The notes under the pieces: model-generated | The model's input: only the letters and a program-made list of their open reading frames with translations | What the model was told of the DNA's origin: nothing | Databases searched by the model: none | Assembly: GCA_031379415.1 (NCBI GenBank) | Contig: JANNFE010000166.1 | Coordinates: forward strand, 156 to 64,155 | Reading direction: 5' to 3' | Source: Betaproteobacteria bacterium | GTDB lineage: Bacteria; Pseudomonadota; Gammaproteobacteria; Burkholderiales; Burkholderiaceae_C | Length of the DNA stretch: 64,000 nt | Position numbers and translations under genes: made by a program | Shown: positions 25,791-39,168 of the stretch, in pieces | Position numbering within the stretch: the stretch's first letter is position 1 | Layout of the letters: the number at the start of each line of letters is the position of its first letter

Positions 25791-25830
25791 GCCCCAGGCC
25801 CCAGGGCAGATACGCCCTGTTCGGGGCTGC

Positions 25831-25844
25831 TTGATCCACCGCAA
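25831..25844. promoter_or_regulatory. FNR-like box TTGAT-CCAC-CGCAA upstream of nuoA
   Basis: Perfect left half-site, two mismatches on the right; follows a CAGGGC-N6-GCCCTG hairpin after the mtrB stop. Confidence 0.45.
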
Positions 25845-25938
25845 CACCGCAAGGCCCGCCTCGCGTTCTGATGCGTCCCGACGAGGGCGACATCGGTGCC
25901 GTGCGCAGCCCCTCGAGTGATCACCACCGGCCCGTGCG

Positions 25939-36222: not shown

Positions 36223-37765
36223 CGCCGGCCTGCTGAACGCGGTGCTGTGGCTGCCGATGCTGGGCCTGGGCCTGCTGCTGCTGACACCCGCCGACAAGCC
36301 CGACCTCACGCGCAACATCACGCTTGGCGTGATGCTGCTGCAGTTCGCGCTCACCGCCTGGCTCTACACGCGCTTCGACAGCGCTGCCGTCGGCCTGCAG
36401 TTCGAGACGCGCGTGCCCTGGATCGCCGCCTGGGGCGTGAATTACCAGATCGGGCTCGACGGCTACAACGTGCTGCTGGTCATGCTCACCGCCTTCCTCG
36501 GTCCGCTGGTGGTGGCCGGCGCCTTCAGTGCCATCAGCAAGGACGTGAAGCTCTTCCACGCCATGGTCTTCCTCATCCAGTTCGCGATGATGGGCACCTT
36601 CCTGGCGCAGGACCTGTTCCTGTTTTACGTGTTCTGGGAAACGATGCTGATCCCGATGTACCTGATGATCGGCATCTGGGGCGGCGAGCGGCGCATCTAC
36701 GCCACCATCAAGTTCGTGCTCTACACCGCCTTCGGCAGCATCCTGATGCTGGCCGCTGTCATCTATCTCGTGTGGGCGCAGCAGCAGCAGAACCCGGGCG
36801 CGGCTTCCTTCGCCTTTGCGGAACTCATGAAGCTGAAGCTGCCGGTGGACGTGCAGTGCTGGCTGCTCGGTGCGTTTGCCCTGAGCTTCGCCATCAAGGT
36901 GCCCATGGTGCCGCTGCACACCTGGCTGCCCGACGCCCACGTCGAAGCGCCCACCGCCGGCTCGGTCATCCTGGCCGGCGTGCTGCTGAAGATGGGCACT
37001 TACGGCTTCATGAAGCTGGGCTTTCCGCTCTTCCCCGACGCCACCGCGCTGTTCACGCCCGCGCTGTCGATACTCGCCGTGTTCGGCATCGTCTACGGCG
37101 CCTGCCTGGCGCTGGTGCAGGACGACATCAAGAAGATCATCGCCTACAGCTCCATCAGCCATCTGGGCTACGTGATGCTGGGGCTGCTGAGCCTGGAGCT
37201 CATCGGCATCCAGGGTGCGGTGGTGCAGATGGTCAGCCACGGGCTGGTGGCTGCCGGGCTGTTCCTGATGGTGGGCATGGTCTACGAGCGCTGCCACACG
37301 CGCGAACTGGCGGCCTACGGCGGGCTCGCCAGGCTGATTCCGGTGTACTCGGTGTTCTTCCTGATCCTCACGCTGGCCTCGGTGGGCCTGCCCACGACGA
37401 GTGGCTTCACGGGTGAATTCCTGGTCCTGCTGGGTGCCTTCAAGGCGGCCTGGCCGCTGCACCTGGCAGGGCAGAACATGCCGCTGGTGCTGGCAGTGCT
37501 GGCGGTGTCGGGCGTGGTGCTGGGCGCGCTCTACATGCTGCGCTTCGCGCTCGGCTTCCTGTGGGGCGCGGCCAAGGCACCGCATCAGGAAACCCAGGCG
37601 CTGGCCGATCTGAATGGGCGCGAGAAGGCCATCCTCGCCTGCATCGTCGTGGCCGTCTTCGCGCTGGGCCTGTTCCCCGACGAGGCCCTGCGCAAGACCG
37701 AAGGTGCGGCCAAGGCCTACCAGCAACTGGTGAGCACGCCGCGTGCGCCAGGAGCCGCACGATGA
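36215..37765 (+). CDS. nuoM: NADH-quinone oxidoreductase subunit M
   Basis: G.DG, D.FLFY.FWE..LIPMY..IG.WG, K.P..PLHTWLP.AH.EAPT.GS..LAGVLLKMG.YG, K..IAYSS.SH.G, M.SHG. Confidence 0.95.
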   Translation: MSDAGLLNAVLWLPMLGLGLLLLTPADKPDLTRNITLGVMLLQFALTAWLYTRFDSAAVGLQFETRVPWIAAWGVNYQIGLDGYNVLLVMLTAFLGPLVVAGAFSAISKDVKLFHAMVFLIQFAMMGTFLAQDLFLFYVFWETMLIPMYLMIGIWGGERRIYATIKFVLYTAFGSILMLAAVIYLVWAQQQQNPGAASFAFAELMKLKLPVDVQCWLLGAFALSFAIKVPMVPLHTWLPDAHVEAPTAGSVILAGVLLKMGTYGFMKLGFPLFPDATALFTPALSILAVFGIVYGACLALVQDDIKKIIAYSSISHLGYVMLGLLSLELIGIQGAVVQMVSHGLVAAGLFLMVGMVYERCHTRELAAYGGLARLIPVYSVFFLILTLASVGLPTTSGFTGEFLVLLGAFKAAWPLHLAGQNMPLVLAVLAVSGVVLGALYMLRFALGFLWGAAKAPHQETQALADLNGREKAILACIVVAVFALGLFPDEALRKTEGAAKAYQQLVSTPRAPGAAR

Positions 37766-39168
37766 ACGGCCAGACCGTCTTCACCGCCATGCTGCCCGAG
37801 CACCTGCTGCTGCTGGGCATTGTGGTGATGCTGGTGCTGGACCTGCTGGACCGCGGGCCGCGCTACGCGCTGGCGGTGGCCCTGGTCTCGGTGGGCGCTG
37901 CAGCCGTGGCCGCCGCGGGCCTGGCGCTGTCGGGCTTCAGCGCCGCGCCGTTTGCCGGCCAGTTCTCGGTCGACCCCGCCGGCCTGATGGCCAAGGCCAT
38001 GGTGCTGGCGCTGGCGCTGCCGGTGCTGCTGATGTCGCGCGACGACTTCGGGCCCCAGGTCGGCGCCGGCATGGGCAGCGAGTTCACCGCCCTGCTGCTG
38101 TCGGCCCTGTACGGCGTGTGCCTGGTGCAGTCGGCCGACAGCTTCCTGACCCTGTTCCTGGGCATCGAGCTGATGTCGCTGCCCGTCTACGTGCTGGTGC
38201 TGCTGGCGCAGCGCCGGCCGCAGAGCGCCGAGGCGGCACTCAAGTACCTGGTGCTGGGCGGTGCGGCCAGCGCCATGCTGCTGATGGGCGCTTCGCTGAT
38301 TTACGGTGCCACCGGATCGCTGGCCACCGCCACCTTTGCCAGCGCCGTGAGTTCGCCCGACCCGCTGCTGCGCGCCGCCGTGGTGCTGGTGATCGGGGCC
38401 TTCTTCGTGAAGGCCGCCATCGTGCCCTTCCACGCCTGGGCGCCCGACGCCTACGAAGCCGCCAGCGTGCCCGTCACCGCCTTCATGGCCGTGGTGGTGA
38501 AGGCCGGCGTGCTGCTGGCCGCGGTGCGCCTGTTCGGCAACGCGGTGATCGCCACGCCGGTGCTGGAACTGCTGGCCGTGCTGCCACTGGCCAGCATCGT
38601 GTGGGGCAACCTGGCGGCCATGCGACAGGACAGCCTGCGGCGTTTGCTGGCCTACAGCTCCATCGCGCATGCCGGCTACCTGTTCTTCGCGCTGCTCGGC
38701 GCGCCAGCCGGGCGCCTGGCATCGGTGGCCTTCTACCTGCTGGCCTATGGCCTGCTGAACCTGCTGGCGCTGGCCGCGCTGCCCAGTGCTGCCGACGACA
38801 CGCAGCGCGACAAGCTGGAGCACCTGCGCGGCCTCTACCAGCGCTCGCCGGCCGCCGCCGTGATGATCGCCATCGCCATGCTCTCGCTGGCCGGCATTCC
38901 GCCACTGCCAGGCTTCGTGGCCAAGTTCCTGATCTTCAGCAACGTCGTTGCCGCCGGTCACGTGACGCTGGCCGTGCTGGGCCTGGTGGGCAGCTTCCTG
39001 GGCATCTACTTCTACCTGCGCGTGATCCAGCTGATGTTCATGAGCCCGCAGGCCGCCGCTGCCGAAACAGGCCCCGTGCGGGGGCTGGCGCTGGGTGCCT
39101 GCGTGGCCTGCCTGGCGCTCACCGCGCTGGTGGCGGTGTTCCCGGGCTGGGTGCTGGCGCGCTTCTGA
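37762..39168 (+). CDS. nuoN: NADH-quinone oxidoreductase subunit N
   Basis: F.G.ELMSLP.Y.L, EAALKY..LG, K....PFH.W.PDAYE.A, N..A..Q....R.LAYSSIAH.GY, SLAGIPP..GF..K. Confidence 0.94.
   Translation: MNGQTVFTAMLPEHLLLLGIVVMLVLDLLDRGPRYALAVALVSVGAAAVAAAGLALSGFSAAPFAGQFSVDPAGLMAKAMVLALALPVLLMSRDDFGPQVGAGMGSEFTALLLSALYGVCLVQSADSFLTLFLGIELMSLPVYVLVLLAQRRPQSAEAALKYLVLGGAASAMLLMGASLIYGATGSLATATFASAVSSPDPLLRAAVVLVIGAFFVKAAIVPFHAWAPDAYEAASVPVTAFMAVVVKAGVLLAAVRLFGNAVIATPVLELLAVLPLASIVWGNLAAMRQDSLRRLLAYSSIAHAGYLFFALLGAPAGRLASVAFYLLAYGLLNLLALAALPSAADDTQRDKLEHLRGLYQRSPAAAVMIAIAMLSLAGIPPLPGFVAKFLIFSNVVAAGHVTLAVLGLVGSFLGIYFYLRVIQLMFMSPQAAAAETGPVRGLALGACVACLALTALVAVFPGWVLARF

Follow-up and report, generated by a model that had tools for sequence, protein, structure and literature searches.

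An accessory short-NuoG complex I operon behind mtrCAB in a Rubrivivax-like betaproteobacterium, with a predicted FNR-type promoter and an altered NuoF pocket

Gene content of the nuoA–N operon

The DNA analysed here is a 64,000-nt stretch of a betaproteobacterial genome (the window), which contains an operon for all 14 subunits of respiratory complex I, nuoA–N, situated directly behind the genes of an MtrCAB-type extracellular electron conduit. The operon spans 25939–39168 on the + strand. Its genes are colinear, with junctions of –8 to +17 nt in the open reading frame map, and in profile searches each subunit from NuoA to NuoN was matched by NCBIfam or Pfam Nuo models. The mtrB gene, in the same orientation, ends with its stop codon at 25790, and 148 bp separate it from the nuoA ATG at 25939. 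It is apparent from the gene map and the profile matches together that a complete, tightly packed nuoA–N does lie 148 bp behind mtrB, as the initial annotation of the stretch had claimed. The data presented below support well the view that nuoA–N encodes an accessory, horizontally spread complex I isozyme, predicted to be made under oxygen limitation.

When the genome to which the window belongs (5.16 Mb in 430 contigs) was searched for another nuo operon, a further full set of nuo genes was found. These genes are of the canonical betaproteobacterial type, which is clade B among the bacterial complex I clades A to E defined by Spero et al. (2015; PMC4453560), and their products are 31–53% identical to those of the window. 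The canonical operon is split by a contig end, with nuoA to the start of nuoL on contig C214 and the rest of nuoL to nuoN on contig C334. The window operon is not the sole copy; it is an accessory isozyme beside the canonical clade B enzyme, as had been proposed from the sequence when it was first read. It does not itself belong to clade B, as judged from the identities just given, from its position in the tree described below and from its NuoG of 484 aa, compared with 772 aa in the canonical operon of the same genome.

The first subunit genes of the window operon are nuoA (25939–26304, 121 aa; NCBIfam NuoA models), nuoB (26301–26825, 174 aa; NF011392, 270.6 bits), in whose product the N2 cysteines (CC..C..CP) are present, nuoC (26828–27301, 157 aa), a short form unfused to nuoD, and nuoD itself (27306–28544, 412 aa), which has a GTG start and exceeds the cut-off of NF004739 with 435.7 bits. 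They are followed by nuoE (28541–29008, 155 aa; TIGR01958), nuoF (29026–30321, 431 aa), with a variant nucleotide pocket formed by Ala168, Arg185 and Arg188, nuoG (30314–31768; Pfam), of the short form, nuoH (31765–32913), with two clade-specific inserts, and nuoI (32910–33485), whose product is extended at the N terminus and has an internal insert. The remaining genes are nuoJ (33482–34021, 179 aa; NCBIfam/Pfam model match), nuoK (34014–34316, 100 aa; 42% identical to the canonical copy of the genome), nuoL (34321–36222, 633 aa; PF00361 and PF00662), nuoM (36215–37765, 516 aa; PF00361) and nuoN (37762–39168, 468 aa; PF00361).

A cysteine map of the window NuoG indicates that the ligands of clusters N1b, N5 and N4 are retained, together with an N7-like CxxCxxxC-X40-C motif; most of the molybdopterin-like domain is missing. 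NuoI contains two 4Fe–4S motifs (Pfam Fer4), and the three antiporter-like subunits (PF00361) are all present. The operon apparently encodes a complete, functional, proton-pumping NAD(P)H:quinone oxidoreductase. The unusual sizes of NuoG, NuoI, NuoH and the separate NuoC and NuoD, which the initial annotation had contrasted with typical betaproteobacterial Nuo, proved real when set against the canonical copy of the same genome: besides the short NuoG, NuoC has 157 aa compared with 199 aa, NuoI 191 aa compared with 165 aa, with its internal insert around YLPEILRGL, and NuoH 382 aa compared with 354 aa, with inserts of ~11 and ~25 aa. The codon style likewise matches the surroundings, in that the G+C content at third codon positions is 0.93 in the operon, a value shared by mtr and the canonical nuo genes.

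Distribution and phylogeny of the second isozyme

Searches with the window NuoG returned the canonical long NuoG, at ~40% identity, from every relative. The short NuoG type was restricted to a minority of them, namely 5 of the 25 genomes of the genus, one of the five having a divergent version, and the isozyme was found in 10 of 401 genomes forming an even sample of the order Burkholderiales. Among 151 genomes of Gemmatimonadota, a native short NuoG, alignable end to end with that of the window at 33–44% identity, was present in 145, and an extra copy, with ~60–63% NuoG identity to the window, in only four. Two contigs of one metagenome-assembled genome (MAG; MFD02809.bin.1.145), carrying loci L031 and L032, each contain a full second-type nuo operon; the two operons are sisters in the tree, and the pair may represent either a within-genome duplication or two strains binned together.

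The concatenated tree was built from 11 Nuo subunits (3446 columns, LG+G4) and included no named clade C references. In it the window operon falls within a tight clade of 56 operons, hereafter the subclade, which long, fully supported branches split from a sister operon (L085), from the native Gemmatimonadota operons and from the canonical enzyme. One branch of the subclade contains diverse betaproteobacteria (Casimicrobiaceae, Burkholderiaceae and others). The other contains a Gemmatimonadaceae group beside a group of Rubrivivax, Aquabacterium, Caldimonas and Rhizobacter; the window operon lies within the latter, and its nearest neighbour in the tree is that of Rubrivivax sp. A210. NuoD homologues are 77–93% identical to the window NuoD. 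The prediction that the operon would not group with ordinary Burkholderiales Nuo is borne out by this phylogeny.

The sister operon L085 (G017:C5:26000–45999), from the same genus, is a third, more divergent short-NuoG operon, with NuoD 65% and NuoG 49% identical to those of the window. For pairs taken from the same genomes of the genus, NuoD of the second-type operon (nuo2) is 85% identical, compared with 95% for the canonical NuoD, and this greater divergence of nuo2 is compatible either with faster evolution or with transfer among relatives.

On long branches, the window operon groups with the native short-NuoG operons of Gemmatimonadota against the canonical enzyme, and the subclade within this short-NuoG lineage resembles clade C of Spero et al. 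Members of that clade have the shortest NuoG (mean 493 aa); it is the canonical type of Bacteroidetes, and Gemmatimonas aurantiaca T-27 has two copies (PMC4453560). The hallmarks in common are the 14 subunits, the unfused NuoC and NuoD and the short NuoG, which at 484 aa is close to the clade mean and is colinear over its whole length with the native NuoG of Gemmatimonadota. There are differences, however: the identity to the native Gemmatimonadota enzymes is only 33–44%, with long branches between, the host here is a betaproteobacterium with a clade B canonical enzyme, and the native short-NuoG enzymes do not have the Glu-to-Ala and Phe-to-Arg changes that are seen in the window NuoF.

NuoD of the Gemmatimonadaceae operons is 77–82% identical to the window NuoD, and because of this similarity a transfer between the phyla Pseudomonadota and Gemmatimonadota is clear. 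The maximum-likelihood tree nests the Gemmatimonadaceae beside the Rubrivivax group, with a value of 99 in the Shimodaira–Hasegawa-like approximate likelihood-ratio test. Monophyly of all proteobacterial copies was not rejected by the approximately unbiased test (p = 0.10), so that the transfer may have run in either direction. In the Gemmatimonadaceae MAGs concerned, some of which are labelled Gemmatimonas phototrophica or Gemmatimonas sp., the isozyme occurs beside the native short-NuoG complex I (loci L033–L035, L038, L040, L043–L048, L050, L051, L053, L054, L058, L068, L073 and L079). Some MAG labels are at odds with the content of the loci: the locus labelled 'Bordetella parapertussis' (L042) falls with Aquabacterium, that labelled 'Candidatus Kuenenia stuttgartiensis' (L080) with Gemmatimonadaceae and that labelled 'Gemmatimonadota' (L067) with a Pseudomonadota MAG. 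The labels of these three loci look wrong, and their taxon names need care.

The initial annotation had also suggested a donor from a Myxococcota- or Bdellovibrionota-like lineage. That suggestion found no support. In a search of representative sequences, short NuoG clusters at 33–51% identity were numerous, and the nearest NuoG relatives beyond the subclade (39–51% identical) were metagenomic, one of them from Vicinamibacteria.

The presence of two complex I enzymes in one bacterium has precedents. Rhodobacter sphaeroides has complexes IA and IE, one canonical and one horizontally acquired, which are thought to serve different redox roles (Spero et al., 2016; PMC4859585). That organism, too, is a purple phototroph with a canonical plus an acquired complex I; its acquired enzyme differs in that it belongs to clade E, in which NuoCD is fused and NuoG is long, whereas the one described here is of the short-NuoG type. 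For Betaproteobacteria, the table of Spero et al. (2015) lists only Nitrosospira multiformis, with a B + E pair, and no combination of B with a C-like enzyme (PMC4453560). Nor do these two papers on paired isozymes mention a promoter with an FNR box, adjacency to Mtr or a change in the NuoF pocket (PMC4453560, PMC4859585).

The NuoF pocket and the predicted promoters

The motif CGEAS(A/G)...PRNRPPR was found in all 70 of 70 NuoF sequences of the subclade, whereas CGEE(T/S)...KPPF is found in the L085 sister, in the native Gemmatimonadota operons and in the canonical enzyme. In the window itself the pocket reads GEAS...RPPR, compared with the canonical NADH pocket GEET...KPPF in the other copy of the same genome, and the FMN and NADH fold is otherwise conserved. 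Ala168 (codon 29527–29529), Arg185 and Arg188 (codon 29587–29589) align to E185, K202 and F205 of Thermus thermophilus Nqo1 and, without gaps, to E259, K276 and L279 of Rhodobacter capsulatus FdsB. As judged from these alignments, the Glu-to-Ala and Phe-to-Arg substitutions are derived and are shared by precisely the members of this subclade; they date from after its split from L085, which keeps the canonical Glu and Phe.

Morina et al. reportedly engineered, in 2011, variants of Escherichia coli complex I at NuoF Glu183 that accept NADP(H). The FdsB variants E259G/Q/H/R or L279R gain NADP+ activity, and the equivalent glutamate governs NADPH affinity in E. coli complex I (PMC10671435). Since both changes in the subclade fall on positions engineered for NADP+ activity in FdsB, the altered pocket suggests, by analogy, the use of NADP(H). 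Ala168 and Arg188 of the window thus occur naturally on exactly the positions that have been engineered in NuoF-type flavoproteins (E. coli NuoF and FdsB). They differ from the engineered changes in that they arose in nature, occur together and have become fixed throughout a clade of respiratory enzymes, and they are known from sequence.

The pocket changes would be incidental if the accessory enzyme were instead specialized for a low-potential quinone, such as menaquinone, under anoxia, with the canonical enzyme serving ubiquinone. Such a specialization would accord with the clade-specific inserts in NuoH, the quinone-site subunit, and with the fact that the short-NuoG lineage is native to Gemmatimonadota, which use menaquinone; the CymA of Shewanella, moreover, works with menaquinol. 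It leaves unexplained, however, a double substitution in NuoF that is strictly conserved, and we regard it as decidedly unlikely.

In 17 loci of the other, sister branch of the subclade, genes for a 2-oxoacid:ferredoxin-type oxidoreductase (OFOR; alpha and beta subunits), a GltD/NfnB-like flavoprotein and a malic enzyme are situated ahead of nuo2 on the same strand. An example is the cluster at L028:2484–8143, with POR_N/PFOR_II, TPP_enzyme_C and Fe–S domains. It is plausible that these genes encode NADPH producers, and the gene set has the look of an NADP(H)-linked catabolic module placed by a complex I with an altered pocket. Further loci with the OFOR–malic enzyme cluster include L031, L036, L041, L063, L066, L070–L072 and L076–L078. 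The window, too, contains a gene for a GltD/NfnB-like flavoprotein (51041–52933), which was considered as a partner of nuo2 and rejected: it occurs in 20 of 41 genomes, many of them without nuo2, and no correlation was seen. The GltD-like homologue adjoining nuo2 in other lineages is a different paralogue, ~30% identical to the gene of the window.

Upstream of nuoA a class II FNR-type promoter is predicted at 25831–25872 (+). It consists of the box TTGATCCACCGCAA at 25831–25844, which has two mismatches to the FNR consensus TTGAT-N4-ATCAA, a spacer of 22 nt and a –10-like hexamer, TCTGAT, at 25867–25872. When the 300 nt before nuoA were scanned in the related loci, an FNR-type box was found in 47 of the 52 that are not from Gemmatimonadaceae. 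In 46 of the 52 the box is followed after 21–23 nt by a TAnnnT hexamer, most commonly TAGCCT or TAGTCT, a spacing that corresponds to the layout of class II FNR or CRP promoters. No FNR-type box was detected by the same scan in any of 18 Gemmatimonadaceae loci. The genome-wide background is 0.064 FNR-type boxes per 300 nt, and it is apparent that the FNR-like box first noticed upstream of nuoA is conserved among relatives far above chance.

A second class II FNR-type promoter, of the same layout, is predicted for mtrC at 19490–19530 (+), with the box CTGATGTGAATCAA, a 21-nt spacer and the hexamer TAGATT. Over the whole window (1–64000), 17 FNR-like boxes with two or fewer mismatches were found, compared with 3.4 expected; others lie near 5850, 12067, 18277 and 50972. 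Between the two operons, a stem-loop past the mtrB stop (25790–25828, +; –23.5 kcal/mol) is no better than shuffled sequence (z-score –1.5) and is not followed by a T-run, which makes it an unconvincing terminator; a generic sigma-70 and terminator scan of the mtrB–nuoA junction detected neither. Given the conserved geometry of box and hexamer and the likeness to the mtrC promoter, nuoA–N very probably has its own FNR-type promoter and shares a low-oxygen regulon with mtr. FNR control of nuoA–N as such is what we infer from the conserved promoter motif.

The mtr neighbourhood and the role of the enzyme

The genes upstream of nuoA–N encode the components of an MtrCAB conduit. mtrC (19625–22402, +) encodes a decahaem lipoprotein with 10 CXXCH motifs and a lipobox, mtrA (22708–23667, +) a periplasmic decahaem cytochrome (10 CXXCH motifs; Pfam) and mtrB (23697–25790, +) an outer-membrane porin of the MtrB/PioB type (PF11854, E = 2e-142). 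Between mtrC and mtrA is a gene for a helix-hairpin-helix (HhH), ComEA-like protein (22405–22707, +; PF12836) that is conserved in relatives. Directly upstream of mtrC lies a gene for a NapC/NirT (CymA-like) quinol dehydrogenase (18735–19358, +; PF03264, E = 3.5e-55), which was also found in L008, L013, L020 and L024, where the flank reaches far enough. The result is a co-oriented cluster of 20.4 kb in the order cymA/napC, FNR box, mtrC, HhH gene, mtrA, mtrB, FNR box and nuoA–N.

Clusters of this kind without complex I have been described. MtrCAB group 4 of Baker et al. (2022) comprises clusters in Betaproteobacteria with passenger genes and an HhH gene beside mtrC (PMC8805035); as here, mtrC, HhH gene, mtrA and mtrB are found in Burkholderiales, with inner-membrane and periplasmic cytochromes as passengers. 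The word 'NADH' does not occur in that paper, and complex I is never named in it as a neighbour of mtrCAB (PMC8805035). Since it mentions no NADH dehydrogenase or complex I, the cymA–mtrCAB–nuoA–N block is not described there.

Several further genes of the window surround the cluster. Convergent with nuoN is a gene for a stand-alone cyclic nucleotide (cNMP)-binding protein (39184–39684, –; 166 aa; PF00027), in which a domain search found no helix-turn-helix or other DNA-binding domain; a homologue with 74% identity occupies the same position in genome G002 (L093:19157–19621). At 16666–17655 (–) a START domain (Coq10/polyketide-cyclase-like) is fused to a cNMP-binding domain, and homologues of this fusion are a recurrent neighbour of second-type nuo in both branches of the subclade (L018, L024, L065, L069 and L074). 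Genes of anaerobic metabolism in the window include those for an NrfA-like octahaem protein (10325–11953), CcmF (12077–14122), HyaE (17703–18299) and an OFOR. Taken as a whole, the window has the appearance of a single large anaerobic island under FNR control.

In the closest relatives of the window, mtrCAB is found immediately upstream of nuo2 and co-oriented with it in 12 loci, with gaps of 127–1556 bp, and divergently upstream in three more, so that 15 of 22 informative loci show the adjacency and seven have no mtr. Every locus with mtrCAB adjacency falls in the Rubrivivax-group branch of the tree. In the 25 genomes of the genus, nuo2 and mtr occur together in four, nuo2 only in one, mtr only in two and neither in 18 (hypergeometric p ~0.006, with the kinship of the genomes ignored). 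A good MtrB was found in none of 14 other isozyme-carrying genomes (9 Burkholderiales, 4 Gemmatimonadota and 1 Casimicrobiaceae).

Of the proposal that the isozyme is dedicated to Mtr, these results sustain one part: the adjacency is conserved in the Rubrivivax group and is accompanied by co-occurrence in the genus. The other part, a dedication of the isozyme as a kind, does not stand, because other hosts are without Mtr. On the genomic comparison, the link to Mtr is real and survives rearrangement, but is a property of one lineage and not of the enzyme as such. Distant MtrA/MtrB-like pairs (21–42% identical) were observed beside nuo2 at L065:6965–7949 (–) and L074:2051–5399 (+), and a further one near nuo2 at G405:C4:235570–236688. 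These pairs may mean that conduit and complex I became linked independently in lineages outside the Rubrivivax group.

The same survey bears on the explanation that nuoA–N and mtrCAB are independent members of an FNR-controlled island, brought next to each other by assembly or co-inheritance and not specially coupled. The density of anaerobic genes and FNR-like boxes in the window agrees with it, as do the separate promoters predicted for the two operons, the 14 genomes with nuo2 and no good MtrB, and the absence of adjacency in G002 and G017. Against it, the two operons stay adjacent across several genera and through an inversion, in both co-oriented and divergent arrangements, and they co-occur in the genus even when unlinked; the MtrAB-like pairs of L065, L074 and G405 are a further point on this side. 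On balance this explanation seems to us somewhat unlikely.

We consider it rather probable that the operon encodes an accessory, horizontally spread complex I under FNR control, which works forward from NAD(P)H to quinone and for which CymA and MtrCAB constitute one outlet. With nuoA–N transcribed from its own class II FNR-type promoter, the enzyme would be expected when oxygen is scarce. Under anoxia it would pass electrons from NADH, and probably from NADPH, to the quinone pool while pumping protons, and CymA with MtrCAB would drain that pool as one of its outlets, so that the products of the cymA–mtrCAB–nuoA–N cluster would carry electrons all the way from cytoplasmic pyridine nucleotide, by way of the quinone pool, to the outside of the cell. 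The forward direction is favoured because the neighbouring CymA, MtrA, MtrB and MtrC form a reducer-type chain, because the island holds other anaerobic respiratory genes and because nuo2 in other hosts follows catabolic dehydrogenases. That the enzyme is functionally coupled to Mtr, and which way the electrons run, we infer from the arrangement of the genes.

The host is a Rubrivivax-like purple phototroph, in whose genome pufLM and form I RuBisCO are present, and electrons might accordingly be thought to flow the other way. Electrons from Fe(II), Mn(II) or a cathode would then enter through MtrCAB and CymA into quinone, and the isozyme, driven by a proton-motive force generated by light, would reduce NAD(P)+ for CO2 fixation. 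The type II reaction centre and the RuBisCO fit this scheme, a pocket reducing NADP+ would suit anabolism, and a complex I isozyme of R. sphaeroides has been proposed to synthesize NADH during phototrophy (PMC4859585). Nevertheless, nuo2 does not track phototrophy: a reaction centre is missing from G002, which has nuo2, and nuo2 is missing from many genomes in which a reaction centre is present. The combination of MtrC with a NapC/CymA-type quinol dehydrogenase is, moreover, the classical reducer layout, most hosts of the isozyme lack any Mtr, and the operon of the sister branch sits behind catabolic genes that would produce NADPH. Reverse flow is a serious rival but, in our estimation, unlikely.

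Several observations weigh against the forward, FNR-controlled, Mtr-linked reading that we prefer. The use of NADPH is deduced from two residues and from analogy with engineered enzymes, and the GltD-like gene of the window (51041–52933) does not track nuo2, being absent from G021. The FNR box of the window, with its two mismatches, and the hexamer TCTGAT are weak; since a convincing terminator was not found behind mtrB, transcription that starts at the mtr promoter may run on into nuo. In two of the four genomes of the genus with both systems, mtr and nuo2 lie on different contigs, and to this must be added the lack of a good MtrB in the 14 other carriers. The pufLM and RuBisCO genes of the host, finally, also fit reverse electron flow.

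A more far-reaching proposal sees in the whole subclade a naturally occurring complex I that pumps protons and is linked to NADP(H), with NuoF Glu185-to-Ala and Phe205-to-Arg (Thermus numbering) as its defining changes. It would be turned on by FNR under anoxia, would have spread by horizontal transfer among Burkholderiales and into Gemmatimonadaceae, and would be wired, both genetically and in function, to CymA–MtrCAB in the Rubrivivax group. We put this forward tentatively, as a possibility that is more doubtful than likely. That a bacterium may have two complex I isozymes, that short-NuoG enzymes exist and that MtrCAB occurs in Burkholderiales is already known. In the literature searched, no description was found of the subclade as a unit, of the double substitution in NuoF, of the conserved FNR-type promoter, of a short-NuoG second enzyme in Betaproteobacteria or of the cymA–mtrCAB–nuoA–N block.

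Experiments on why some bacteria retain two complex I isozymes exist for very few species. The operon described here provides a sharply defined, testable case, in that a conserved promoter of low-oxygen type, a pocket change throughout a clade and a physical link to a conduit in one lineage come together, and the near-identical Gemmatimonadaceae operon is one more instance of genes passing between the two phyla. Use of NADPH would make the enzyme a natural example of an energy-conserving NADPH:quinone oxidoreductase, a kind so far obtained, to our knowledge, only by mutagenesis. With coupling to Mtr, the cluster would form a compact module for mineral respiration or electrosynthesis that could be transferred. 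Should both the NADP(H) linkage and the wiring to Mtr prove true, a single 20-kb cluster would link the NADP(H) pool of the cell with extracellular minerals or electrodes.

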